A stretch of 61,620 nucleotides of DNA from Kiritimatiellia bacterium (lineage in GTDB: Bacteria > Verrucomicrobiota > Kiritimatiellia > SLOV01): assembly GCA_963578625.1 (NCBI GenBank), contig CAUZEO010000003.1:1-61620 (forward strand), in the 5' to 3' direction. The position numbers were made by a program, and so were the translations under genes. Below, one piece after another: positions 7,208-42,565 of the stretch. Numbering within the stretch: position 1 is the first letter of the stretch; the number at the start of each line of letters is the position of its first letter. The notes under the pieces were generated by a model. It was given only the letters and a program-made list of their open reading frames with translations. It was not told the DNA's origin and did no database searches.

Positions 7208-8038
7208 TTACTTTGCTGTCCGCCGGCGAAGTCCGGCGAAAAGCAGTGCGCCGATGCCTAGCATGGCCGCAGTCGAGGGCTCTGGGATGGCGTCGAGGTA
7301 CACGGAACCGTAGTTGTCCGCATAGAAATTCGCGGACTGGATATTGCGAAGGTCATCCCCAGCAACGGCTATACCGGTAGCGGAGAAAAGCACTCCGGCG
7401 CCTTGCATGCTGGAAATCGTGGCGTCGATGGTGTCGTTGAGGGTACCGTCAACAAGATGGTATATGATTTCCGCCGCGAGCCATTCGTCGGTGGGGATCG
7501 TTCCGCTAACCCAAGTGCAATTTCGGCAGCCTACGTTAATACCTCCGTTCCTGTCCCAGCTCGCGGCCAGCATGGCCCAGCCGGCAGTATCCGTGGACGT
7601 GAGTTCAAAGCCGAAGGATCCGGTCTGGGCAGCGGTGGGCGATGAGTCGACGAAAAAGCTAAACGTCGTAGTAATATCGCCGGCATCTCCCGGTCCGACA
7701 TCGTTGATGTCCAATCGCTGATTATAGTAATTGCCGGATCCATAAGTCCCCGCGTTGAACATGGTCACGAACTGGCTGCCTTGGGCCGCTCCAGTGGGGC
7801 CCGCGGATGTAACCACGTTACCGACTCCCGCGCCGCCGGCGTTTACATCCCAAGCCCCCTCTCCACCATAGGTTTCTTCAGACAGTTGCGAAGTAAACGT
7901 AGAGCCCAACGGCTGTGCTTCGTAGTCGTCCGCTCCCAGTAGCCCCAACGTGGAATGTGATATGGATGTCGCCTGTGCTGTGCTGACAATTCCCAGCGTC
8001 AGGGCAACGGCGATAGGCGTGATGAGATTCATCTTCAT
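7208..8038 (-). CDS. PEP-CTERM-anchored secreted LamG/lectin-like protein
   Basis: ATG at 8038 with GGAGAG upstream gives MKMNLITPIAVALTLGIVSTAQA. The C-terminus IPEPSTAAMLGIGALLFAGLRRR has the PEP motif, a TM helix and a basic tail. Confidence 0.85.
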   Translation of the reverse strand: MKMNLITPIAVALTLGIVSTAQATSISHSTLGLLGADDYEAQPLGSTFTSQLSEETYGGEGAWDVNAGGAGVGNVVTSAGPTGAAQGSQFVTMFNAGTYGSGNYYNQRLDINDVGPGDAGDITTTFSFFVDSSPTAAQTGSFGFELTSTDTAGWAMLAASWDRNGGINVGCRNCTWVSGTIPTDEWLAAEIIYHLVDGTLNDTIDATISSMQGAGVLFSATGIAVAGDDLRNIQSANFYADNYGSVYLDAIPEPSTAAMLGIGALLFAGLRRRTAK

Positions 8039-8498
8039 GTGTAGTCTCTCCTCTGCGTTTTGTGAGGACACGACAGGTTGCTCCCAACCCGTTTGTCCAC
8101 ACGGCCTACTAGTCTGATGCAGGCGCCTAAAGACCTAACGCCTGCGACGAATTTGAGATTCTATGGACACCTCAAGGAGAGGCTCCTATCAAAAAACGGG
8201 CCCTTGTACAATCAATTCTCATCCCCAATACTATGGAGTCTCCGTAAAATCTGTGGATCGGCCCGGCTGCGAGGTGAGGCTATAGAGGCCCAGAATTGGG
8301 CTTTTTACCCCGAAACGACCATAAAACATGCTAATACGAAATATTCCCACAGCAGATCTGACGCCATGCCAGTGGCCTGGGAGGCCAAATCGCAGGTGTG
8401 AGAATGGCGGTTTCGGCTTCACCACCGACAGGATGCCGCTCTTTGTCCATGCCCCCTCGCGCGTGAACATTTTTCTGGTATCTTTACAGATACGTTCC

Positions 8499-9296
8499 AT
8501 GCCGAAGCTATCCAGAACGCAGACGCCACCAGCCCGGTGTTTCTCCAGAGCGTTCACGCTCATCGAACTCCTGGTCGTCATCGCGATTATCAGCGTACTG
8601 GCAACACTGCTGACGCCGGCACTGAAACAGGCGCTTGAGCAAAGCCGTTCGGCCGTATGTAAGACGCATCTGCGCGGCCTTCATCACGCATTGATTTTGT
8701 ATGCGCAAGATCATGACGCGACGCTCCCGCAACGCCATCATCATGCCGGAGACGAAAAGCCGGTCCTGGGGGTGTCGAACGGGATCGACCAGTATCGCTC
8801 CCTTGGCAACGCGGGCTGGGTCGCAGGAGCCGCCGACCAGATTCTGGACGACTACGTCGGCCGCGGGTCCATCGATTCGTTTTTTTGCCCGTCCGACCCA
8901 ACCGCGGGCGAACCAGGCGAACCCCCGGCGAACCGTACCAAGTATTCCTATGCGTGGAACACCCACCTGATCGTCGACTTCGGAAACACGTTCACTCCCC
9001 CGGGCGGCGGCCATCACTTCTGGTCGGCGCAGCCGTTTGAGGTGATCCACCCGCGCACCGCCGTCATCAGCGACCGGAACTTTCTGACCACCACGGTTAT
9101 TTCCGAATTCCAGGAACCGCTTTACGAAGACACGATTCACATCGGCTGGTTCAGCAGCCTCCCCTTCAGCCCCCAGGAACCCGGGTACGCACACCTGGGC
9201 AAGGCCAACATCTCCTTCCTGGACGGGCACATTGAGCCGATGGACCGGAGCGACATCCTTCGCGCCGGCAGCGATTTCTGGTACGGAGGACACTGA
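8499..9296 (+). CDS. Prepilin-type N-terminal cleavage/methylation protein, H-X9-DG class
   Basis: ATG at 8499. [21 protein letters not shown] is a prepilin signal. The C-terminal H-LGKANISFL-DG fits H-X9-DG. Confidence 0.85.
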   Translation: MPKLSRTQTPPARCFSRAFTLIELLVVIAIISVLATLLTPALKQALEQSRSAVCKTHLRGLHHALILYAQDHDATLPQRHHHAGDEKPVLGVSNGIDQYRSLGNAGWVAGAADQILDDYVGRGSIDSFFCPSDPTAGEPGEPPANRTKYSYAWNTHLIVDFGNTFTPPGGGHHFWSAQPFEVIHPRTAVISDRNFLTTTVISEFQEPLYEDTIHIGWFSSLPFSPQEPGYAHLGKANISFLDGHIEPMDRSDILRAGSDFWYGGH

Positions 9297-11638: not shown

Positions 11639-11694
11639 TGGAGAAGAAAAGGGGCAGCGTGTACCTTTGGCTCCGGACGATACTCTCTGCTCGG

Positions 11695-12214
11695 CATGCG
11701 CGTACGCCGACAGGCGGCCTTTCTTGACGAGCTGAATCCGCTTGTCCGGATCCACCGGAAAATCGAACACCGTTGCGAGTTTAGTTTCCAGGCCGGGAAA
11801 ACATGGGCTCAGCAGCGTGTCTTTTTTCGCGTAGGTCCGCTTCAGCCGGTAGGAATCCCCGTCGAGAAGAAACACTTCGACCGCAGAGGGATATGGGGTG
11901 ACCAGCCAGACCTCTGCACCCCGCTTCTCGCATACAGCTCCAGTTTTCTGCCGCGGTCGTGCAACAACGTGGAGAACGACAGGATCTCTATCAGCAGGAA
12001 AGGTGGTCCCTCAACGTGCGTTTTCTTGATCTGTTTTGGATCGCACACCACCAGAATATCCGGGGCGCTTCATTGCCTTGAAAAACGCGTACAGTTCAGC
12101 AAAGAAGTCCGCCAGGACTCGCCGGTACCGTTCCTGCGGACTTGGCGTCATTGCATATGCCCCCCCATCAATGACTTACCGGCGCGGGTCATCGTGCCAG
12201 ACCTGAATGGTCAT
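11695..12214 (-). pseudogene. Decayed Uma2-family (DUF820) nuclease-fold gene
   Basis: Pieces in different frames align to the intact copy at 18898..19521: VVCDPKQIKKTHVEGPPFLLIEILS.STLLHDRGRKLELYA, then a frame change, then VFLLDGDSYRLKRTYAKKDTL...FDFPVDP. There is an in-frame TAA at 12176..12178 (WHDDPRR*VIDGGAYAMTP) and an internal deletion before VVCDPKQ. The normal stop is lost. Confidence 0.65.
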
Positions 12215-12357
12215 CCCGCTCGCGGGGGAAATCTTTTGATCTCTTTAGACCGCCCCATGTTCGAAACCTGCCGGTCAAGAGAACATCGATCACGGGATCA
12301 TTTACAGCAGGAACTATTTGTTTTTGTATTTCTTGTTGAACACTCTCGTTTTTCGTC

Positions 12358-15039
12358 ATGCTGGTTTTCATGAATCTGCCGCTCCCGCCAGGTATGTGGA
12401 ATGCAGTCGTCGCGACGGGACTCCTCCTCGCGGTCTTCTCCGCTCCCCCGGCGCATGCGTCTCCCGCACCGGCCTACCACATCTCGATCCACGACCTGCC
12501 GTCCCCCGGGACGGCGGACTATGCGGTATTCGCATCGTGGCTTGCCGCCCATCCGCGGGTCCTTCCCGTCAACTTCCGGCAGATGCCGATTCAGACCCTC
12601 TATCGCGGCAACCTGATGATGGCAATGGCGGGCGGCACCGCTCCCGACCTGGTCCGGGTGTATCACCACGAGGCGAAGGCCTGGATCCGGCACGGATTTC
12701 TGGAACCGCTGGATCCGTATATTTACCGGGACGTCGATGGAGACGACCGCTACACGGACGGAGTCGACGAAGTGATCTGGGAACCCCTGTTGCACATGCC
12801 CCCGCAGGTGCGCGCCTTCATGCAGGAGGACGGCCACTTCTACATCGTCCCCCGGTTTCAGTGGATCCAGTTCCTCCTTTACCGCAAAGATCTCTTTCGC
12901 GAAGCGGGGCTCGATCCGGAGAAGCGAATCGAGACGTTCGACGAGTTGCTGCACGCCGCACGCAAACTGACCGACCCCACTGCGAGCGTTCCCGGCGCGC
13001 GCGCGCCGCACGGCCGGAAGGGAATCGGAATCGCCCCGAACGGCTGGCACTTCCAGGGGTGGCTCTATGCGCACGGGGGCCGATCCATGTTCACCAAAAA
13101 GGTCTGCCTGCATTGCGCGACGCGGAACCGGTTCGAACAGGGCGAGTTCCAGTGGAAATGCCGGTCCTGCGAAAAAAGCCTTGGCGACATTCCGGGAGTT
13201 GAACGCGCCGCACTCAACAGTCCGGAGTCCAACCAGGCCCTTGATCTGTGGATGGACATGCTGTGGGCGCCCTTCACCACCTGCCCGGTCTGCGAGGAGC
13301 CGATCGAGTTGGGCAACGCCAACACGCGCATCGACCTGCCGGCAAAACGAGATTGTCCGCACTGTGACGAACCGGTCCACCTCGACCGGGACGACCAGGT
13401 GATCTACGGCTGTGCCCGCCCCCTCATCGACGAAGACCGTCACTGGCACAACCTCTGGCTCGACGGCGAGATCGCCATGATGACCGACCTGTGGACGTAC
13501 TGGATCGGAGCCGGTCATGTCGACCCGGCCGTGGTCGGGACCATGCCGATGCCCGGCACGGGGGGAAGCGCTTCGGGATATCATTTTTACGGAATCTACC
13601 GGGGCACGAAGGAACGGGAAGGCGGCCCGGACCGGTTGCAGGTCTGCGTCGACCTCATTCTTGATTGCTCTGCCCAATACTTCGTCCCGCAAGACCACCC
13701 GGATTATCTGAAATACGATAAGGAGCGGACCCGGGCTTTGGTGCGCAACGGCCTCTTCCACCTCTGCTCCTACGACGAACTGGTTGCAGCGGATCTCGAG
13801 GAATACGCCGCCGAGATCCCGGAGGGCTCCCGCCGCATGCAGCAACTGATTCGCGACCCCGATCGATATACCTGCGTTCCCATGAGCGAAGGGTACACCC
13901 GCGTGCAGACGGAGATCCTCCAGTACAACCTGCTCAGCCGGATACCCGCCGACCGCGATTTCGATGTGGCTGCGAATCTCGAGCGCGCCAACACGCTGGC
14001 CGACACGCAGGTCTTCATGAAGGAGGAGATCGTCGGGGAAATGGCGCAGCGGTTGCGATGGCCCTTCTTCGGCGGACTCTCCCTGTTCCTGCTCGCCCTG
14101 GGCACATTCGTTTACCGCACGATTCGCCGGGCACGAGTACGGCTGCGTTCCGTGCGGGAACGAAAGATCACTCAGGGCAAGCGATCCGCCGCCCTCGCCC
14201 TGCTCCTGCCGGCCATCCTGCTCGTCCTTGTCTGGGCCTATTACCCCCTGGTTCGCGGCTCGCTGATGGCGTTCCAGGAAGTCCGGCTGCTGGGCGGCTC
14301 GCGCTTTGTGGGCGTCGAGAATTTCATCCGGGTGGTCACCAACCCGATGTTTATGAGCATGGTATCGGCCACGGTTCAGTTCGTGGCGGCCACCCTCCTG
14401 CTGGGATTCTTCGCGCCGGTGATCCTGGCCGTCCTGCTGGCGGAGGCGCGCCGGTTTTCCACCCTCTTCCGCGTCATTTACTACGCGCCCCACCTGTTGG
14501 GGGGTGTGGTGGTGTTGTTTGTCTGGCGCATCTTCTACATGCCGACATCGGAGGGCCTGCTGAATCACCTGATCGGTTTCCTGGGCCTGGGCCCGGTCCG
14601 TTGGCTGGAAGATCCACTCATCAACAAATGGATGCTGGTCATTCCCGGGGTCTGGGCCACCACCGGGGCGGCCTGCCTGATCTACCTTGCCGCCCTGAAA
14701 ACCATCGATGACGAACTGTACGAAGCGGCCGACATGGACGGCGCCGGAGCGCTCCGCAAGGTCATGCACATCACCCTGCCGAGCTTAAAGCCCCTGTTAA
14801 TCATCAATTTCGTGGGCGCGTTCATCGCCGCCTTTCACGGTATGGGCAATGTCCTGGTCCTGACCGGCGGCGCCCACGAAACGAACGTGATCGGCCTGCA
14901 GATCTTCCTGGAGGCGTTCGGGTACCTGCGGTTCGGATCGTCCACCGCCCTGGCGTGGATCCTGGCCAGCGTGCTGATCGGGTTCACCGTGTTCCAGCTG
15001 AACTTTCTCCGCAAGGTCGAGTTCCGGAGAGCCGCCTAG
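12358..15039 (+). CDS. Fusion protein: extracytoplasmic sugar-type solute-binding domain (with Cys-knuckle inserts) + MalF/UgpA-type ABC permease
   Basis: 893 aa. N-terminal signal/anchor (VVATGLLLAVFSAPPAHA) and SBP-like blocks (GTAPDLVRVY, LLYRKDLFREAGLDPEKRIETFDELL, GWLYAHGG). A TM helix (FFGGLSLFLLALGTFVY) and a basic loop follow. The 6-TM permease part carries an EAA-type loop (DELYEAADMDGAGALRKVMHITLPSLKP). The start among ATGs at 12358/12370/12394 is uncertain. Confidence 0.85.
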   Translation: MLVFMNLPLPPGMWNAVVATGLLLAVFSAPPAHASPAPAYHISIHDLPSPGTADYAVFASWLAAHPRVLPVNFRQMPIQTLYRGNLMMAMAGGTAPDLVRVYHHEAKAWIRHGFLEPLDPYIYRDVDGDDRYTDGVDEVIWEPLLHMPPQVRAFMQEDGHFYIVPRFQWIQFLLYRKDLFREAGLDPEKRIETFDELLHAARKLTDPTASVPGARAPHGRKGIGIAPNGWHFQGWLYAHGGRSMFTKKVCLHCATRNRFEQGEFQWKCRSCEKSLGDIPGVERAALNSPESNQALDLWMDMLWAPFTTCPVCEEPIELGNANTRIDLPAKRDCPHCDEPVHLDRDDQVIYGCARPLIDEDRHWHNLWLDGEIAMMTDLWTYWIGAGHVDPAVVGTMPMPGTGGSASGYHFYGIYRGTKEREGGPDRLQVCVDLILDCSAQYFVPQDHPDYLKYDKERTRALVRNGLFHLCSYDELVAADLEEYAAEIPEGSRRMQQLIRDPDRYTCVPMSEGYTRVQTEILQYNLLSRIPADRDFDVAANLERANTLADTQVFMKEEIVGEMAQRLRWPFFGGLSLFLLALGTFVYRTIRRARVRLRSVRERKITQGKRSAALALLLPAILLVLVWAYYPLVRGSLMAFQEVRLLGGSRFVGVENFIRVVTNPMFMSMVSATVQFVAATLLLGFFAPVILAVLLAEARRFSTLFRVIYYAPHLLGGVVVLFVWRIFYMPTSEGLLNHLIGFLGLGPVRWLEDPLINKWMLVIPGVWATTGAACLIYLAALKTIDDELYEAADMDGAGALRKVMHITLPSLKPLLIINFVGAFIAAFHGMGNVLVLTGGAHETNVIGLQIFLEAFGYLRFGSSTALAWILASVLIGFTVFQLNFLRKVEFRRAA
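13105..13365 (+). other. Two CxxC...CxxC zinc-ribbon-like knuckles inserted in the solute-binding domain
   Basis: CLHCATRNRFEQGEFQWKCRSC lies at 13105..13170 and CPVCEEPIELGNANTRIDLPAKRDCPHC at 13282..13365. Both are in frame within 12358..15039. Confidence 0.6.
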
Positions 15040-15053
15040 CGCATCGTAGACTT

Positions 15054-17099
15054 ATGCCCATCCTCTCGACCATCGGCGCCCGGCGCCCGGAACAGATCGC
15101 GCTCCGCGCGGGCATCTACCTCCTCTTGCTCCTGGGCGCCCTGGGCATTGTCTATCCGCTCCTCGTGGTGCTTGGGCAGACCTTTAGCGACCGCTTCGAC
15201 CTGCGGGAGAACGCGGTCGTTCCACGCTATCTCCGGAGTCGAAACGACCTCGCTCTCAAGCGGGTCTTCTCCTCGACCGCGCGCCTCGACCTGCTCGCCA
15301 GCCGTCACCGTCGGAACCAGTGGACCAGCCCGGCCGCGATGCGCTCTGACGCGGACTTTTACGAGTCAAGACCCGGCTTCCTGGAAGCGCTTGGCTACCC
15401 GCAAGAAAGCTGGGAAGCGGTTCTGGCGGACTTTAGTGCGTTCAAGTCCACCGTCGATCCCGCGAACCTGGTGGCCCGGGCGTTCCGGATCGAGGACTAC
15501 TACCGTCCGTTCCTGCGGGATTCGTTCGCCCGGCAGGCGGATCAGTTCATCGCCGAGCGCGCGCAGGGCCGGCCGGACCCGGAGTGGTTTCAGCGGTACG
15601 CGCCGGATGCGGATCGCCGACAGGAGGCCCTGGCGGACCGGGAGGAGCTGGCCCGCATTCTCATGAACCACGAGCTGCGCGGCTTTTATCGAAGCGTCTA
15701 TCACGTGGAACTCATCCAGCCGGGAAACCTGACCGTCCCTTTCTGGCGGCCGGCCCCGCTCCCCAAGGAGCGGATGTGGATCCGGTTCAAGGGAACCCTT
15801 CCGCCCGGGCAGCTCATGATCGTTCCGTCAGACACCTATTGGCATGCGTTTCTCAAGACGAGGTACCGGGAGATCGGCGAGTTGAATACGGCGTGGGGAA
15901 CGGACCACGAAAGATTCTACAGCCTGCGGCTTGCGCTGACGGCGCCCGAAGACCCGCGGATACGCGACGATTGGGATCTGTTCATCGTCACCCGCTGGCC
16001 CCGCAGGCTCCTTGAGGTGCCCCCGGAATTCGCCCCTGCCTGGCGCGCGTTCGTCTCCGGCAGGCTGAACGCTCGCGCCCGGGAGATGGGGATGCCGCCT
16101 TCGTGGGCACTGGAGGAGGCTGCGCAACTTTCGGGGACGGACCTCACGGCCTGGGAGCAGCTCGAACTGCCCCGCCGGATGCCGGAGAACGACGATCTCA
16201 TGCGCTACTGGTGCGAATTCACCGCCTCCGGACAAATCCCGGCCGTGAAGCTGATCCTCGACGCTCCCGAGTTGAACTTCCGTCGCTTCCTACAGCGCAA
16301 GTACGGGGATGTCGCCGGGCTCAACCAATCCTGGGGCACTGCTTTCTCGCGATTCAAAGACGTGTCGCTGCCGCACGTACTCGCCGACTACCTTCCCGTG
16401 CGGAATGAACCGGGACGGTTGCGATGGAGCTTTGCCACCGAGTCGTATCGGCGTGTGATCGAATACCTGTTCGGCAAGGGGCGGGCGGTATGGAACACGT
16501 TCGTCCTGGTCGTGCTTTCGTTGATCTCGGCGCTGACCATCAATCCCATGGCGGCGTACTCCCTGTCGCGCTTTCCCATGAAGAGCTCGCACCGGGTGCT
16601 CATCTTCTTCCTGGTCACCATCGCGTTCCCGGTGGAGGTGGCCATGATTCCAAACTTCCTGCTGCTCCGGGACCTCGGCCTCCTCAACACCTTTGCGGCC
16701 CTGGTGCTGCCCGGGATGGCCAACGGATTTTCCATCTTCCTCCTGAAGGGATTTTTCGATTCGCTCCCCGCGGAGTTGTACGAAGCGGGAGAAATGGACG
16801 GCGCCTCGGAATTCCAGATCTTTCGGATCGTGGCCCTGCCCCTGCTGAAGCCGATCCTGGCCTATATCGGGCTCGGCGCCTTCGTGGCCGCCTACGGGGG
16901 ATTCATGTGGGCGATGATCATCTGTACCGACCCGGAGATGTGGACGCTGATGGTCTGGATATACGATTTCCAGATGTTCCGGCCGGGCAACAACTACATC
17001 CTGGCCGCCACCGTCCTGGTCAGCATCCCACCGCTCCTCGTCTTTCTCATTGCCAACCGGATTATCATGAAAGGCATCGTGATCCCCACCATGGCGTAA
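15054..17099 (+). CDS. MalG/UgpE-type ABC permease with very large TM1-TM2 extracytoplasmic insertion
   Basis: ATG at 15054, 681 aa. TM1 is IALRAGIYLLLLLGALGIVYPLLVV. About 430 non-hydrophobic residues follow. The last 203 aa form a normal permease core (VWNTFVLVVLSLISAL..., EAA loop AELYEAGEMDGASEFQIFRIVALPLLKP). Confidence 0.85.
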   Translation: MPILSTIGARRPEQIALRAGIYLLLLLGALGIVYPLLVVLGQTFSDRFDLRENAVVPRYLRSRNDLALKRVFSSTARLDLLASRHRRNQWTSPAAMRSDADFYESRPGFLEALGYPQESWEAVLADFSAFKSTVDPANLVARAFRIEDYYRPFLRDSFARQADQFIAERAQGRPDPEWFQRYAPDADRRQEALADREELARILMNHELRGFYRSVYHVELIQPGNLTVPFWRPAPLPKERMWIRFKGTLPPGQLMIVPSDTYWHAFLKTRYREIGELNTAWGTDHERFYSLRLALTAPEDPRIRDDWDLFIVTRWPRRLLEVPPEFAPAWRAFVSGRLNARAREMGMPPSWALEEAAQLSGTDLTAWEQLELPRRMPENDDLMRYWCEFTASGQIPAVKLILDAPELNFRRFLQRKYGDVAGLNQSWGTAFSRFKDVSLPHVLADYLPVRNEPGRLRWSFATESYRRVIEYLFGKGRAVWNTFVLVVLSLISALTINPMAAYSLSRFPMKSSHRVLIFFLVTIAFPVEVAMIPNFLLLRDLGLLNTFAALVLPGMANGFSIFLLKGFFDSLPAELYEAGEMDGASEFQIFRIVALPLLKPILAYIGLGAFVAAYGGFMWAMIICTDPEMWTLMVWIYDFQMFRPGNNYILAATVLVSIPPLLVFLIANRIIMKGIVIPTMA

Positions 17100-37305: not shown

Positions 37306-37873
37306 GTCGTGAGAACCCGCTACCATCCGCCCAATGGGTTGACCCGTTCCCGTCCCTCGCGGTGTCGAGGAGCCGGGGGGGCATCGTAGAAGCCCCACCG
37401 GACCGAGGGACATGTGGTTCCCGCCCGAACATCCATCCGGCGGGGGAGCACTGCGCGCCGCCCTCGGCGGACCAGGTGTCGGCCAGGACGTAAATCGTGC
37501 TCCAAAATCTCTTGTGCCCCTCTGGAGCCGCGAACCCCGGATTGCGGAGCCCGATCGAGAAGCGTACACTGGGTCAACTGATGAAATTCCCCCATCCCGA
37601 CCGGAAAGCCTTTACTTTCATCAGGCGACTCGCCGTCGTCTCCACCATCTCCATCCCGGCGTCACCGGCCCGTGATGAGCACATGAAGGCAACGGCCGAG
37701 CGCGTGCAGGAGATCTCGGAGCGCTTCACTGCCCTGAAACAACGTCTCTACCTCGGCCAGGCCGGAGGGCTGGTGGAGAACGCGCTGGCCGACGTGCGCG
37801 AGGCGACCGGGTTGACCGTACCCGAACCACTGTTTTCCCAAGCGCCGTGGCTAAATTCGAGGAGGTGAGGTCT

Positions 37874-40654
37874 ATGCGGAAAAGGCCGATCAGCGCCTCG
37901 CCGATTGGAAAGACGGCCTTGATCACCGTTCTGCTCGCCGCTTTGCTATCGTCGTCCGCCTCCGGCGTTGCCGCCGAGCAGAAGGTCCGGCTCCGTGTCC
38001 CCGGACTGCCGCGGCGAGGGGACACGAGTCTGGTGGCCCTGGTCCGACTGGCCCAGTACGAAACCTTTCTGCGCCGCAATCCGGACATCGAGGTGGTGTC
38101 TCCCACCAAGCTTCATATGCCGGGGAAGCTGCACGAGGGGCTGGAGCTGATGTCCATTGCCGGCGACTCGGCCCCGGACGTCCTCAATCTCTACGTCCGC
38201 AAGGTCCAGAACTTCATCGACCAGGGATTCATTTATGACCTCGAGCCCCTGATCGAGCAGGAACTGAAGGCTGATCCCGATTTCGTGGCCCGTCTGGGAA
38301 CGCCGGAATTCCTCTGGCCCGTGGTGACGAAAGACGGCCGGCGGTATGCCCTGATCAAAGACTATTACCTCCGCAACATGATCTACCGGAAGGACCTGAT
38401 GAGGGAGGCGGGGATCGACCCGCCCCGCGCGCCAAAGGATTGGGATGAGCTCTACGACTTCGCCCGGCGAATGACCCGGCCGGACCGGGAGATTCCCCAG
38501 GCCGAGAAGGTGGACGGGCAGTGGGGGCTGCGCCTGATGTGGGGCAGTTTCGCCGGTTGGCTCTTTACCGATTTTGTCTGGCAAGCGGGCGGCGACATGA
38601 TCCGTCAGTTCAAGACGTGCCCCCGGTGCGGTGCCGAGCACGAAGCGGTCAAGGAGAAGGAACTGCTTCGTTGCGGGGACTGCGGAGGGGAACTCGCCTC
38701 GATGGCCCCGGAATGGCGATTGACGTACGGGGACGAAGCGGGAGCCGAGGCCCTGCGCTTCTACAAGAAGCTGCGCTGGTCGAAGTGGGCCCGCTGTCCT
38801 CACGACGACGAGCCCGTCGACGTCCCCACCGTGGTCTGCCCCACCTGCCGCGAGCCCAACCCGGTCCTGCCCGATCCCGGCGCCGGCAAAAAGCCCGACC
38901 GGATGGCCTGCCGGGTGGACGGGACCTCCCTGGAAGTCCCGGCAGCGAAGAAACGCTTCGTCTGCCCGCTCGACGGGACGTTTCTGGACGGGGAAAAGAT
39001 CCATACCGGCGTGGTGGAGATGCAGGAACAGGGGTTGACGGATTTCGAAGCGGGCAGCGTGGGCATGGCGGGTCACACCAGCATTCACGACGCAGTACGG
39101 CACTTAGAGACGGTAGGCCTGCGGGGCGCGGACATCGGGTTTGCCCCCTGGCCGGCCGGGCCGGGGGGCCGGGCCAGTTTCGTGGGCGGCAACGCACTGG
39201 GCATCAACCGAAACGTAAAGGACCCCCGCGTGATGGACGCGGCCTGGCGTCTGATCAAGTTCATGTGCAGCGAAAATGCCCGTCGCATCGAGACGCGGGT
39301 GAAAGTGGAAAACGGGTTCGCCCTCTACAGCGATCCGCGCGACCTGAAGCGATTCGGCTACGACGAGTATTACGAGCAGTTCTCGCCCGAGCTGGTCCGG
39401 GTCTACGATGAGATCGACCGGATCGGGCGGGTGGAACCTTTCGTGGCCAACTACCAGATCGTCCAGGCCGTCCAGCTCACCGAACCGGTGGATACGATCC
39501 TGAAGCTGGCCGACGGCTACCGTTACGACCCGGCCGTCCTGATGCGGGAGAACGAGCGGAAGAGCAACACGGCGGTCATGAAGGTGCGGGAGGAGTCCCT
39601 CCACGGGAAAAGGCAGCGGGTCGCTTGGTTCTTCTTCGTCCTTGCCGTTCCGCTGGGGGCCCTGCTCATCCGGGCCGTGCTGCGCGGCCATGCCGAAAAG
39701 CTGGCCAAGGAAGAAGTCGTGCCGCCCGCGCGCCGGCGACTTCGCGTTCGGCTGCGGATCTGGTGTTTCCTGGGGCCGGCGGTGGTCCTGGTGCTGGTGT
39801 GGCAATACCTCCCGCTGTTCCGGGGATCGGTGATGGCCTTCTTCGATTACCGGATCATGGCCCAGAGTCTCTACCTGGGTCTCGACAACTTCATCGAGGC
39901 CGCGACGTCGGGTCTCTTCTGGCGGGTGATGGGGAACACCGTGATCTACGTGGCCATGACCCTCGGGTTCGGGTTTCTCGTCCCGATCATCCTCGCCGTC
40001 ATGCTCAGCGAGACCCCGGTGGGAAAGATGTTCTTCCGCACCGTCTTCTATCTCCCCACCGTCATCTCCGGCATCGTGATCATGCTGCTGTGGAAAGTGA
40101 TCTACCAGGCCAGCGACGACGGCCTGCTGAATCGCCTCCTGGCGGCGCTCAACGAGATCACCATGCGGGTGGGCTGGCAGATCTACGATCGGCCCATCGA
40201 CTGGCTCGGCGAAAACGCCTTCCTCGCCATGGCCTGCGTGGTGATTCCAGGCGTCTGGTCGGGAGCGGGAGCGGGCAGCATTCTCTACCTGGCCGCCCTG
40301 AAGACGGTGCCGGAGGATCTCTACGAATCGGTGGCCCTGGACGGCGGCGGGGTGGTGCAACGCATCCGCCACATCATGATCCCGTTTCTCCTACCCCTGA
40401 TTGTGATCAACTTCATCGGCGCCCTCATCGGGAGCTTTCACGCCATGGCCAACATCTTCGTCATGACCGGCGGCGGTCCCGTGAACGGGACGCGGGTGAT
40501 CGGGCTGGAGATCTGGGCCAACGCCTTCGTCTTCCTGAAGATAGGATACGCCACCGCCCAGGCGTGGATCCTGGGGGCCATGTTAATCGGGTTGACCCTG
40601 ATGCAAATGCAGATCCTGAAGCGGGTCGAGTTCAGGGCGGGGGAGGCCAATTAA
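37874..40654 (+). CDS. Fusion protein 2: solute-binding domain with Cys-knuckle inserts + MalF/UgpA-type ABC permease
   Basis: ATG at 37874 is preceded by GGAGGTGAGG. Signal/anchor KTALITVLLAALLSSSASGVAA, then SBP blocks (DSAPDVLNLYV, MIYRKDLMREAGIDPPRAPKDWDELYDF, FVWQAGGD). A TM helix (VAWFFFVLAVPLGALLI) and a basic loop follow. The permease part has the EAA loop EDLYESVALDGGGVVQRIRHIMIPFLLP. The architecture matches 12358..15039. Confidence 0.85.
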   Translation: MRKRPISASPIGKTALITVLLAALLSSSASGVAAEQKVRLRVPGLPRRGDTSLVALVRLAQYETFLRRNPDIEVVSPTKLHMPGKLHEGLELMSIAGDSAPDVLNLYVRKVQNFIDQGFIYDLEPLIEQELKADPDFVARLGTPEFLWPVVTKDGRRYALIKDYYLRNMIYRKDLMREAGIDPPRAPKDWDELYDFARRMTRPDREIPQAEKVDGQWGLRLMWGSFAGWLFTDFVWQAGGDMIRQFKTCPRCGAEHEAVKEKELLRCGDCGGELASMAPEWRLTYGDEAGAEALRFYKKLRWSKWARCPHDDEPVDVPTVVCPTCREPNPVLPDPGAGKKPDRMACRVDGTSLEVPAAKKRFVCPLDGTFLDGEKIHTGVVEMQEQGLTDFEAGSVGMAGHTSIHDAVRHLETVGLRGADIGFAPWPAGPGGRASFVGGNALGINRNVKDPRVMDAAWRLIKFMCSENARRIETRVKVENGFALYSDPRDLKRFGYDEYYEQFSPELVRVYDEIDRIGRVEPFVANYQIVQAVQLTEPVDTILKLADGYRYDPAVLMRENERKSNTAVMKVREESLHGKRQRVAWFFFVLAVPLGALLIRAVLRGHAEKLAKEEVVPPARRRLRVRLRIWCFLGPAVVLVLVWQYLPLFRGSVMAFFDYRIMAQSLYLGLDNFIEAATSGLFWRVMGNTVIYVAMTLGFGFLVPIILAVMLSETPVGKMFFRTVFYLPTVISGIVIMLLWKVIYQASDDGLLNRLLAALNEITMRVGWQIYDRPIDWLGENAFLAMACVVIPGVWSGAGAGSILYLAALKTVPEDLYESVALDGGGVVQRIRHIMIPFLLPLIVINFIGALIGSFHAMANIFVMTGGGPVNGTRVIGLEIWANAFVFLKIGYATAQAWILGAMLIGLTLMQMQILKRVEFRAGEAN
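38618..38965 (+). other. Cys-knuckle insert region of fusion protein 2
   Basis: CPRCGAEHEAVKEKELLRCGDC lies at 38618..38683. A second Cys cluster follows: RCPHDDEPVDVPTVVCPTC...MACRVDG...FVCPLDG. Confidence 0.55.
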
Positions 40655-42565
40655 ATGCCCCTGATCCTTCCGGCTGAGCGACGTTCGTTGCGTGCGATCC
40701 TGTTTCACGGCCTGATCGTGGTGCTGCTGGCCCTGGGCTCGGTGACCATGCTCTACCCGTTTGCCATTACGGTGGCGACCTCGTTCACGAGCAACGTCGA
40801 CTACCGCGATTGGCGGTTGATCCCCCGGTATTTTCACGACGACGTGGCCCTGTACCGCAAGTACCTGGAGGCACGGTACGGAAAGGACCGGCCTTTCTTT
40901 CTCGAATTCCAGAGCAAGCACAGGCTCGAGGAGATTTCACAGTACACACAGATCGAAGCGATCCCCGAGGTCGATCTCGACGATCCCCACCTGCAGTGCC
41001 GGGTCGAGGACTGGGACCGGTTTCGGAGGGAATTGCCCGAGCGGTTTATGCGCACCTATTTCTTTGACGCCAACTACCTGGAGGGACGGTCGCAGAAGGT
41101 GTTCCAGCGGTATCTGCGGAACCGGTTCGACCATGATCTCGCGGCCTTCAATGCCCATCTGGGTCTCGGAATTCCCTTCAAATCGTTCCACGAAGTCAAC
41201 GTGCCGGACGTCAACCTGGAGGGACACGGGTTGCGCATTCGCCGGGACCCGCTGCGGGATCTCTTCCTGTCCTACCGGGAGGAGATGCCCCTGGATCTGA
41301 TCAATCCCCTCAACTTCGACCAAATCTACCAGGCCCGAATCCGCGGCCGGTACGCCGACATCGGCGCGGTCAACCGGGCTTGGGGGCGGGCCTTTCCCGG
41401 TTTTCTGTCGATCCGGTTTCCGACCGTTCGACCGGAGGGGGAGGAGGGTGCGTTCTGGGCCGAATTCATGCGCAAGCGCTTTCCCATCCGCTTCGTGAAG
41501 GTAAGGAGCAATCACGCCGAGGCCTACCGGGGCTTTCTGGCCGAGCGCTACCAGGGGGAGGCTCGATACAATCGGGTGGTGGACAAGTTCAACGCGGAAT
41601 CGGGTCTGGCTATCCCCGCCCTGGCGGACACGGTCTTTCCCTCCATGCCTCCGGAGACCGATTTCGAGTTTCAGAACTGGAAGCGTTTCATCGACGAGAA
41701 GGTTCCGTTGGAGCAGCTCATCATCGAGACGACGCACACCCGCTATCACGATTGGCTTGGAAGAAACTACGGGACCGTCGAGGCGCTGAACGGAACGTAT
41801 GGAGCCGGCTACGCCGCAGTCGAGGAGGCGGAGCTCCCGTGGGTCCTCGCGGACGCAGCCTGGTTCAAGGCCAACCGCAACCAGATCAAGCGCGAGTTCA
41901 TCACGGCGAACTATCGCATGGTCTGGAGCTTCATGTCGCAGCGGGGAAGAGCCTTCTGGAACACGATCGTGCTCGTGGTGCTGTCGGTGATCGGGGCTCT
42001 TACCATCCAGCCCATGGCGGCCTTTGCCCTGAGCCGCTATCGCTTCTCCTACAAGCACAAGGTGCTCATCTTCCTCATCGCCACCATGTCGTTCCCGGCC
42101 GAAGTGACCATGATCCCGAATTTCCTGCTGTTGCGGGAGTTCCACCTGTTGAACACCTACGCGGCGCTGATCCTGCCGGGGCTGGTGAGCGGGATCAGCA
42201 TCTTCTACCTGAAGGGGTTTTTCGATTCGCTTCCGCGTGAGCTCTACGAGGCGGGGATGATCGACGGGGCCTCGGAGCCGCGGATGTTCTGGGAGATCAC
42301 CATGCCGCTCTCCAAGCCGATTCTGGCCGTCATCGGGCTCAACGCCTTTACCGCGGCCTACGGCGGCTTCATGTGGGCGCTGCTGATCTGCCAGGAAGAG
42401 AAGATGTGGACCCTGATGGTCTTCCTCTACCAGTTTTCTTCGCAGAACAAACCCCCGCCGGCCCAGATGGCCGCTTTTGTCCTGGCGGGGATACCGACGC
42501 TGCTGGTCTTCATCTTCGCCCAGAAGACCATCATGCGCGGGATCATCGTGCCGACAATGAAGTAA
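40655..42565 (+). CDS. MalG/UgpE-type ABC permease 2 with large TM1-TM2 insertion
   Basis: The ATG directly follows the TAA of the upstream gene. TM1 is ILFHGLIVVLLALGSVTMLYPFAI. About 385 non-hydrophobic residues follow. The last 203 aa are a permease core colinear with 15054..17099 (FWNTIVLVVLSVIGAL..., RELYEAGMIDGASEPRMFWEITMPLSKP). Confidence 0.85.
   Translation: MPLILPAERRSLRAILFHGLIVVLLALGSVTMLYPFAITVATSFTSNVDYRDWRLIPRYFHDDVALYRKYLEARYGKDRPFFLEFQSKHRLEEISQYTQIEAIPEVDLDDPHLQCRVEDWDRFRRELPERFMRTYFFDANYLEGRSQKVFQRYLRNRFDHDLAAFNAHLGLGIPFKSFHEVNVPDVNLEGHGLRIRRDPLRDLFLSYREEMPLDLINPLNFDQIYQARIRGRYADIGAVNRAWGRAFPGFLSIRFPTVRPEGEEGAFWAEFMRKRFPIRFVKVRSNHAEAYRGFLAERYQGEARYNRVVDKFNAESGLAIPALADTVFPSMPPETDFEFQNWKRFIDEKVPLEQLIIETTHTRYHDWLGRNYGTVEALNGTYGAGYAAVEEAELPWVLADAAWFKANRNQIKREFITANYRMVWSFMSQRGRAFWNTIVLVVLSVIGALTIQPMAAFALSRYRFSYKHKVLIFLIATMSFPAEVTMIPNFLLLREFHLLNTYAALILPGLVSGISIFYLKGFFDSLPRELYEAGMIDGASEPRMFWEITMPLSKPILAVIGLNAFTAAYGGFMWALLICQEEKMWTLMVFLYQFSSQNKPPPAQMAAFVLAGIPTLLVFIFAQKTIMRGIIVPTMK

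Follow-up and report, generated by a model that had tools for sequence, protein, structure and literature searches.

The DNA analysed here is a 61,620-nt window of contig CAUZEO010000003.1 from a Kiritimatiellia bacterium; the window means this whole stretch, its numbering is used for all positions, and features lie on the plus strand unless stated otherwise. At 12358..15039 it carries gene A, which encodes an 893-amino-acid (aa) fusion of a signal peptide, a CUT1-type solute-binding protein (SBP) domain, an extra transmembrane (TM) helix and a MalG-type ATP-binding cassette (ABC) permease, as read from its open reading frame (ORF), Pfam matches, orthologs, an AlphaFold2 (AF2) model and Foldseek matches. 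Within the exported SBP domain of gene A we have identified two modules of four cysteines each, conserved among orthologs and located on the tips of two beta-hairpins, that most likely bind one structural metal ion each, probably Zn2+.

The N-terminal part of gene A matched Pfam SBP_bac_1 with 59.4 bits (gathering score 26); SBP_bac_8 and, in the C-terminal part, BPD_transp_1 were matched as well. The AF2 model, built on 38 orthologs, reached a predicted template modelling score (pTM) of 0.71, with a predicted local distance difference test score (pLDDT) mostly of 85–95 in the SBP part and of 87–95 over residues 240–360. When this model was compared with the PDB using Foldseek, CUT1 sugar-binding proteins came out on top (E ~1e-13, TMt 0.70–0.76 among the top matches), namely Streptomyces scabiei MalE (8art), Listeria Lmo0181 (5f7v), GacH (3jzj), T. 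litoralis TMBP and M. tuberculosis UgpB. Gene A shares with such proteins (8art, 5f7v, 3jzj) the bilobal fold, the SBP_bac_1 family and the predicted pairing with MalF/MalG-type EAA permeases. Judged by its profile, its fold and its predicted partner, the host domain is of the CUT1 type, and the CUT1 identity given to it by the original prediction, which had been made from the sequence without database searches, holds. A sugar ligand in the inter-lobe cleft would fit the genomic context, with a GH36-like gene upstream and GH38 and sulfatase genes in the vicinity. Unlike the characterised CUT1 proteins, the gene A domain is fused to a permease through an extra TM helix and carries some 100 or more additional residues, including the two Cys4 modules. 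Its Foldseek alignments extended over 520–550 columns against CUT1 SBPs of ~380–415 residues, which is consistent with roughly at least 100 residues being absent from the latter.

The first module is formed by the knuckle pair C250-L-H-C253 and C268-R-S-C271 (13105..13170), the second by C309-P-V-C312 and C333-P-H-C336 (13282..13365). By translation the two CxxC knuckles are separated by 14 residues in the first pair and by 20 in the second, both within the ~10–25 residues of zinc ribbons. All four motifs and the coordinates of both pairs had been read exactly beforehand, and only the first spacer, then counted as 13 residues, needed correction. Four CxxC motifs did not arise once in 20000 shuffles of protein A (0/20000), and gene A and a second fusion, paralog B, are the only long ORFs of the window with at least three CxxC. 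Chance clustering of cysteines is ruled out by these shuffles together with the conservation in orthologs described below. The modules interrupt the SBP domain, as had been suggested: SBP_bac_1 covers residues 70–218 only, the Foldseek alignments contain extra residues, and the inserts align to the tips of two hairpins. Sequence-level matches to PDB entries are confined to residues 71–246; they end before residue 250 and therefore none of them covers the Cys modules.

The side of the membrane at which these cysteines are found could be deduced from the permease part. Gene A starts with an N-terminal signal sequence (12358..12459), recognised in the sequence by the hydrophobic core WNAVVATGLLLAVF and an AHA↓S-type cleavage motif, and the signal peptides of orthologs are of the classical KK/R type, for example MKKAIVCLAFLACALSALPAAAA in P0003. 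Following the SBP domain, the extra helix TM0 (residues 568–586, 14059..14115), supported by the sequence, an AF2 helix at 555–598 and the ortholog consensus, runs from out to in and tethers the domain to the permease. Between TM0 and TM1 lies an R/K-rich loop, RTIRRARVRLRSVRERKITQGKR (residues 587–609, 14116..14184), that has 11 Arg/Lys in 23 residues and is assigned to the cytoplasm by the positive-inside rule. Six core TM helices follow, with the EAA loop EAADMDGAG (residues 789–797, 14722..14748) between the fourth and the fifth. The EAA loop of type I ABC importers docks the ATPase and is cytoplasmic, which makes it an anchor for the topology. Five TM helices are found between it and the SBP domain; counting five crossings back from the cytoplasm places the SBP domain and its cysteines in the periplasm. 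On this predicted topology the Cys-bearing domain is extracytoplasmic, and the same layout is found in paralog B. An exported domain had been proposed, with topology named in advance as one of the checks, and the signal sequence, TM0, the R/K-rich loop and the five TM helices agree in placing the segment outside the cytoplasm. A cytoplasmic location of the Cys segment is ruled out both by counting TM helices back from the EAA loop and by the R/K-rich loop.

For locating the modules on the fold, gene A was aligned with fused relatives that have no Cys at these sites and with MalE of E. coli; the 11 ligand-contact and 3 landmark residues that were checked in the MalE sequence all matched. In this alignment both modules fall into the C-lobe. 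Module 1 adds ~31 residues on the tip of a hairpin that follows a conserved GG motif, at the equivalent of MalE 167–183, and module 2 adds ~36–40 residues on the next hairpin or loop past the following helix, at the equivalent of MalE 201–210. The first hairpin comprises residues 244–284 (13087..13209), with AF2 strands at 244–249, 256–260 and 281–284 and pLDDT of 87–93. The second comprises residues 305–355 (13270..13422), with strands at 305–308, 315–317, 329–332, 339–342 and 353–355 and pLDDT of 91–95; its counterpart in the Cys-free relatives is a short PWTD-xxGK-WKGVA hairpin. Both AF2 models, the full-length one and that of the insert alone (pLDDT 88), predict each CxxC to be flanked by strands at a strand-turn-strand.

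The cysteines are well conserved. A search of 5.8 billion clustered proteins retrieved an identical copy of gene A, 39 close relatives (P0002–P0040; 47–59% identity, 37 of them near full length) and ~40 distant fused SBP-permeases. The orthologs (45–58% identity) come from metagenome-assembled genomes (MAGs) of Planctomycetota, Kiritimatiellota, Victivallales and Verrucomicrobia. Most of the Cys-free fused relatives are from Armatimonadota. Each of the eight knuckle cysteines is kept in 37 of 38 aligned orthologs, so the conservation that had been named as a check on the modules was found. Loss of the cysteines is all-or-none per module: all four of module 1 are gone, with a deletion, in P0039, and all four of module 2 are replaced (by A, T, D and N) with the hairpin length retained in P0034. 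The ortholog consensus reads K-T-C-P-x-C-G...W-x-C-x-x-C-G for module 1 and K-C-P-H-C-x-E-P-V-x-L-G...C-P-x-C for module 2, and its CPxCG is nearer to a canonical knuckle than the CLHC-A and CRSC-E of the window protein. Non-Cys residues of the inserts are conserved at 0.56, compared with 0.72–0.76 in the SBP core, with a few Pro, Gly and aromatic positions as exceptions; this is as expected of a surface scaffold.

The periplasmic domain of gene A contains further cysteines, C352 (13411..13413), C430 (13645..13647) and C470 (13765..13767), kept in 36/38, 37/38 and 34/38 orthologs, respectively. Unlike the knuckle cysteines, these are lost one at a time. Many orthologs have a GCARxC motif, in which a Cys absent from the window protein lies four residues past C352.

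Zinc-ribbon character is most evident in the orthologs. Inserts from several orthologs scored above the Pfam gathering scores of Zn_ribbon_3 (37.1 vs 27), DZR (39.6 vs 27.3), Zn_Ribbon_1 (33.3 vs 25) and Zn_ribbon_IS1595 (33.2 vs 25.4), and the automatic names given to some orthologs by the Joint Genome Institute (JGI) include “ribosomal protein S27E/S27AE”. With the isolated insert model Foldseek returned no significant match (best E 0.4). Many of the weak local matches were to proteins with zinc-ribbon or zinc-finger modules, among them LysW (root-mean-square deviation of 2.1–2.2 Å over 43–44 columns), S27e from archaea, Tim15 and the N-terminal domains of MCM. The description “zinc-ribbon-like” in the original prediction thus fits the CPxCG consensus, the ortholog Pfam scores and the weak local matches to LysW, S27e and MCM. 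The likeness to known zinc ribbons (Zn_ribbon_3, DZR, Zn_Ribbon_1, Zn_ribbon_IS1595; LysW, S27e) consists in two CxxC knuckles 14–20 residues apart, in hairpins and in the CPxCG of orthologs. The modules of gene A differ in sitting inside an exported binding domain, in the window copy scoring under the Pfam thresholds, and in that their metal binding is predicted. To our knowledge, known zinc ribbons are overwhelmingly cytoplasmic and bind nucleic acids or proteins.

A search with a profile of the SBP domain against 1.84 billion representatives widened the comparison (12938 relatives at E<=1e-3, 193 at E<=1e-30), and both sites were surveyed in the 117 representatives (50% clustering) that cover the insert region. 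Site 1 is short and Cys-free in 76 representatives (median 18.5 aa) and extended, with 3–4 Cys in ~45 aa, in 15; site 2 is short and Cys-free in 81 (median 22 aa) and extended, with 3–5 Cys in ~50 aa, in 25. Sites with three Cys and sites with four are about equally common (11 vs 10 representatives at site 2). The relatives form a graded series that passes from Cys4 through Cys3 with Asp or His (CPDDG...CxxC, CPxGH) and Cys2Asp2 (CPVDG...CPNDG in P0082) to no Cys, and P0041 and P0092 keep the excursion without any Cys. In P0081, P0090 and P0119, CPxD is paired with CxCxxC and four Cys are maintained. Among half-sites of 50%-non-redundant relatives that are down to one Cys, Asp stands at the lost second-Cys position in 17/51 (background 7%, binomial p=3e-8), and His is found one residue past the lost Cys position in 10/51. 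The periplasmic domains of orthologs contain 4–9 additional Cys, and even numbers are not preferred (22 even vs 16 odd).

Taken from these sequence data, the reading that we favour, to which we give a probability of about one half, is that each of the two modules holds a single structural metal ion, probably Zn2+. Zinc-ribbon-type modules of ~30–40 residues would have been grafted onto beta-hairpin tips of the C-lobe in a CUT1 domain that is periplasmic and tethered to the membrane. The four Cys thiolates of each module would coordinate a single metal ion, which would keep an otherwise floppy hairpin excursion rigid, and the stiffened excursions may enlarge a C-lobe surface that serves either to bind an extended glycan or to contact the transporter's membrane subunits. 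The sites would be staples, neither catalytic nor ligand-contacting; we read them so because a hairpin can persist without Cys and because relatives show all stages down to no Cys. Judging from the sequences of these relatives, the modules are demonstrably dispensable there.

Several points weigh against a bound metal. The location is periplasmic, and Sec-exported cysteines under DsbA-type oxidation tend to form disulfides. In the window protein itself the knuckles CLHC-A and CRSC-E are without the Pro/Gly signature, and its insert stays under all Pfam zinc-ribbon thresholds (best 21.6 vs 27; 19.7 vs 25.4 for Zn_ribbon_IS1595), in addition to the non-significant Foldseek matches of the insert. 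The replacement counts for Asp and His are not phylogenetically independent; Asp-Gly is favoured in turns, so that the enrichment of Asp may be partly structural. Moreover, in some of the 3-Cys variants the missing Cys is replaced by Ala, Arg or Thr, and no other residue stands out as a fourth ligand.

The strongest competitor, which we regard as possible and clearly less probable than structural zinc, is that after Sec export two disulfides per module (one in Cys2 variants) tie the hairpin arms together with no metal involved. The periplasmic position of the segment suits it, and the all-or-none loss of four Cys is explained equally well by disulfides and by a metal site. In P0081, P0090 and P0119 the Cys lost from CPxD is offset by the extra one of CxCxxC, so that the number of four is kept, and variants of the CxxD...CxxD type retain one Cys per half-site, possibly for a single cross-link. 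However, sites with three Cys occur as often as those with four, as would be expected more readily of Cys3+X metal sites than of paired disulfides. Asp and His, the usual alternative zinc ligands, take the place of lost Cys far above background, which is expected of metal ligands and not predicted by disulfides, and thus tilts the balance toward a metal site. The CPxCG signature and the ortholog Pfam matches are likewise typical of metal knuckles. As for the many additional Cys, their lack of an even-number bias hints at a weakly oxidising envelope; such a bias was reportedly described by Dutton and colleagues in 2008 for exported proteins of bacteria that form envelope disulfides. Of the three readings that the original prediction had offered, namely metal sites, disulfide-stapled knuckles and a hairpin for docking a ligand or partner, the comparison thus leans toward the first, and structural zinc is favoured over disulfide staples.

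Perhaps, the hairpins serve mainly as a surface for docking or ligand contact, the cysteines being only a scaffold. The surface would face either an extended oligosaccharide or the large predicted periplasmic region of the partner permease, which is encoded downstream of gene A (15054..17099; ~680 aa from the ATG at 15054, with BPD_transp_1 at residues 545–706 of a 714-aa maximal ORF). We consider this role unlikely as the main one, and it is compatible with a structural metal. Nearly invariant non-Cys positions (K308, E314, P315, G319, P328, W266 and F259) speak for it, as does the replacement by site 2 of the loop equivalent to MalE 201–210. That loop presumably adjoins a MalE residue implicated in contact with the membrane subunits; a review of the maltose importer gave no residue-level support for a position of site 2 on the docking face of MalE. 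On the other side, the average conservation of the inserts is under that of the core. Furthermore, a partner permease of 600–800 residues follows the fused gene in nearly all related loci, whether the modules are present or not, including Cys-free Armatimonadota with the short hairpin. The modules thus do not track the partner, and their specific co-occurrence with a large partner permease was rejected.

A bolder and rather improbable proposal is that the extracytoplasmic Zn(Cys)4 or Cys3Asp sites act as an envelope sensor of redox state or zinc, switching glycan import on or off when these mostly anaerobic bacteria encounter oxidants or a shortage of zinc, or else as docking pegs to the periplasmic region of the partner permease. 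In the redox form, to which we attach slightly less weight still, zinc would be held in a reducing envelope and oxidation would release it, form disulfides and alter the C-lobe surface, so that import is tuned to oxygen or oxidants. The indications for it are indirect: Cys4 zinc sites are chemically redox-labile, as in Hsp33 and RsrA, the modules are exposed to the envelope, many anaerobes are found in the host clades, and one ortholog locus has a gene for a glycyl-radical enzyme. Yet whole modules are lost while the gene is kept (P0034, P0039), many relatives have degenerate sites or none, so that they are dispensable, and no regulatory partner is evident in the window. Rubredoxin-like Fe(Cys)4 sites, or other redox cofactor sites for electron transfer, are very improbable even though the CxxC...CxxC pattern is common to rubredoxins: the signal is of the Sec type with no twin-arginine motif, implying unfolded export, the sites freely degrade to Asp or to no Cys, and the neighbouring genes include no redox partner. 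For each of seven inserts, the 25 best Pfam families listed (E<=10) comprised neither a rubredoxin nor a thioredoxin family, and the modules are ~30 residues long and lie inside an SBP.

Paralog B (37847..40654) is a 935-aa fusion of the same architecture by Pfam (SBP_bac_1 with 80.9 bits, BPD_transp_1) and TM layout. Its first knuckle pair, CPRC x14 CGDC (C258/261 and C276/279; 38618..38683), is followed by a second cluster, CPHD...CPTC and CRVD...CPLD (C317, C331/C334, C355 and C373; 38795..38977). Both the first pair, placed near the same codon as in gene A and found at codons 258–279 by translation, and the additional cluster had been pointed out before. From the sequence and its relatives, the second cluster appears to consist of two degenerate ribbons, with Asp in place of the second Cys in three of the knuckles; P0081 and P0090, relatives of paralog B, have complete CPAC...CPKC and CRVC...CREC at the corresponding places. 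No identical protein and none of >40% identity to paralog B was found in the collection of 5.8 billion proteins, and paralog B is in a much rarer branch than gene A. The fused SBP family seems to have acquired zinc-ribbon-like modules repeatedly. Another relative of paralog B, P0086, has a CPRC...CRVD zinc-ribbon-like insert at a third, different SBP position (~residues 440–480), and in P0130 eight Cys occur at site 1.

The host protein has itself received little study; it joins a CUT1 binding domain to the permease in one chain, within loci that degrade sulfated or mannose-rich glycans, and such fusions are distributed over MAGs of the Planctomycetes-Verrucomicrobia-Chlamydiae (PVC) superphylum and of Armatimonadota. 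Binding domains are likewise tethered to the translocator in OpuA and GlnPQ of Lactococcus, where the tether provides a high local concentration of the binding domain. OpuA and GlnPQ belong to other SBP and permease families, while the fusion in gene A is N-terminal, of CUT1 type and made via an added TM helix, and we know of no Cys4 inserts in OpuA or GlnPQ. The literature, searched in full text both for zinc ribbons within solute-binding or periplasmic domains and for SBP-permease fusions in Planctomycetes, yielded nothing relevant; the one match on zinc ribbons and the periplasm, LetA, is an unrelated lipid transporter. The Cys4 modules are unusual in location and well conserved within their clade, and amount to a modest variation of a known transporter type. 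A conserved Cys4 zinc-ribbon pair is unusual inside a Sec-exported binding domain. If zinc is held there, the modules would join the very few extracytoplasmic tetrathiolate zinc sites known to us, and would inform on the redox state of the envelope in the mostly uncultured Planctomycetota, Kiritimatiellota and Victivallales. The natural series of Cys4, Cys3Asp/His, Cys2Asp2 and no Cys on one scaffold is useful for studying the gain and loss of structural metal sites. Practical impact would be modest, because the modules look like dispensable decorations.

Finally, the neighbouring genes fit a locus for glycan utilisation. A GH36-like enzyme is encoded directly upstream of gene A and a GH38 alpha-mannosidase directly upstream of paralog B, and the window also encodes two sulfatases, a GH127-like protein and a CBM9 protein. 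Neither a Walker A nor an LSGGQ motif of an ABC ATPase was found in any frame of the whole window, which places the ATPase for both import systems elsewhere; in CUT1 systems the ATPase is often encoded at a separate locus. The maximal ORF of the partner permease of gene A starts with a GTG at 14955 and overlaps gene A by 85 nt; the ATG at 15054 (MPILST...), 15 nt past the gene A stop, is the more likely start. The partner permease of paralog B (40655..42565, 636 aa, identified by Pfam) has its ATG directly after the paralog B stop. At 714 and 636 aa, the two partner permeases are very long, and the BPD_transp_1 core takes up only the last ~170 residues, so that a large periplasmic region is predicted in each; short and weak Glyco_hydro_42 matches (34.4 and 27.7 bits over ~30–40 residues) were observed in it. 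Between the GH36-like gene and gene A, ~720 nt (11639..12357) contain no convincing ORF and may be promoter or regulatory DNA. A PEP-CTERM-tailed protein (7208..8071, minus strand) and one whose N-terminus bears a prepilin-type methylation motif (8328..9296, plus strand) adjoin the glycan-utilisation genes, a combination typical of PVC-superphylum genomes.

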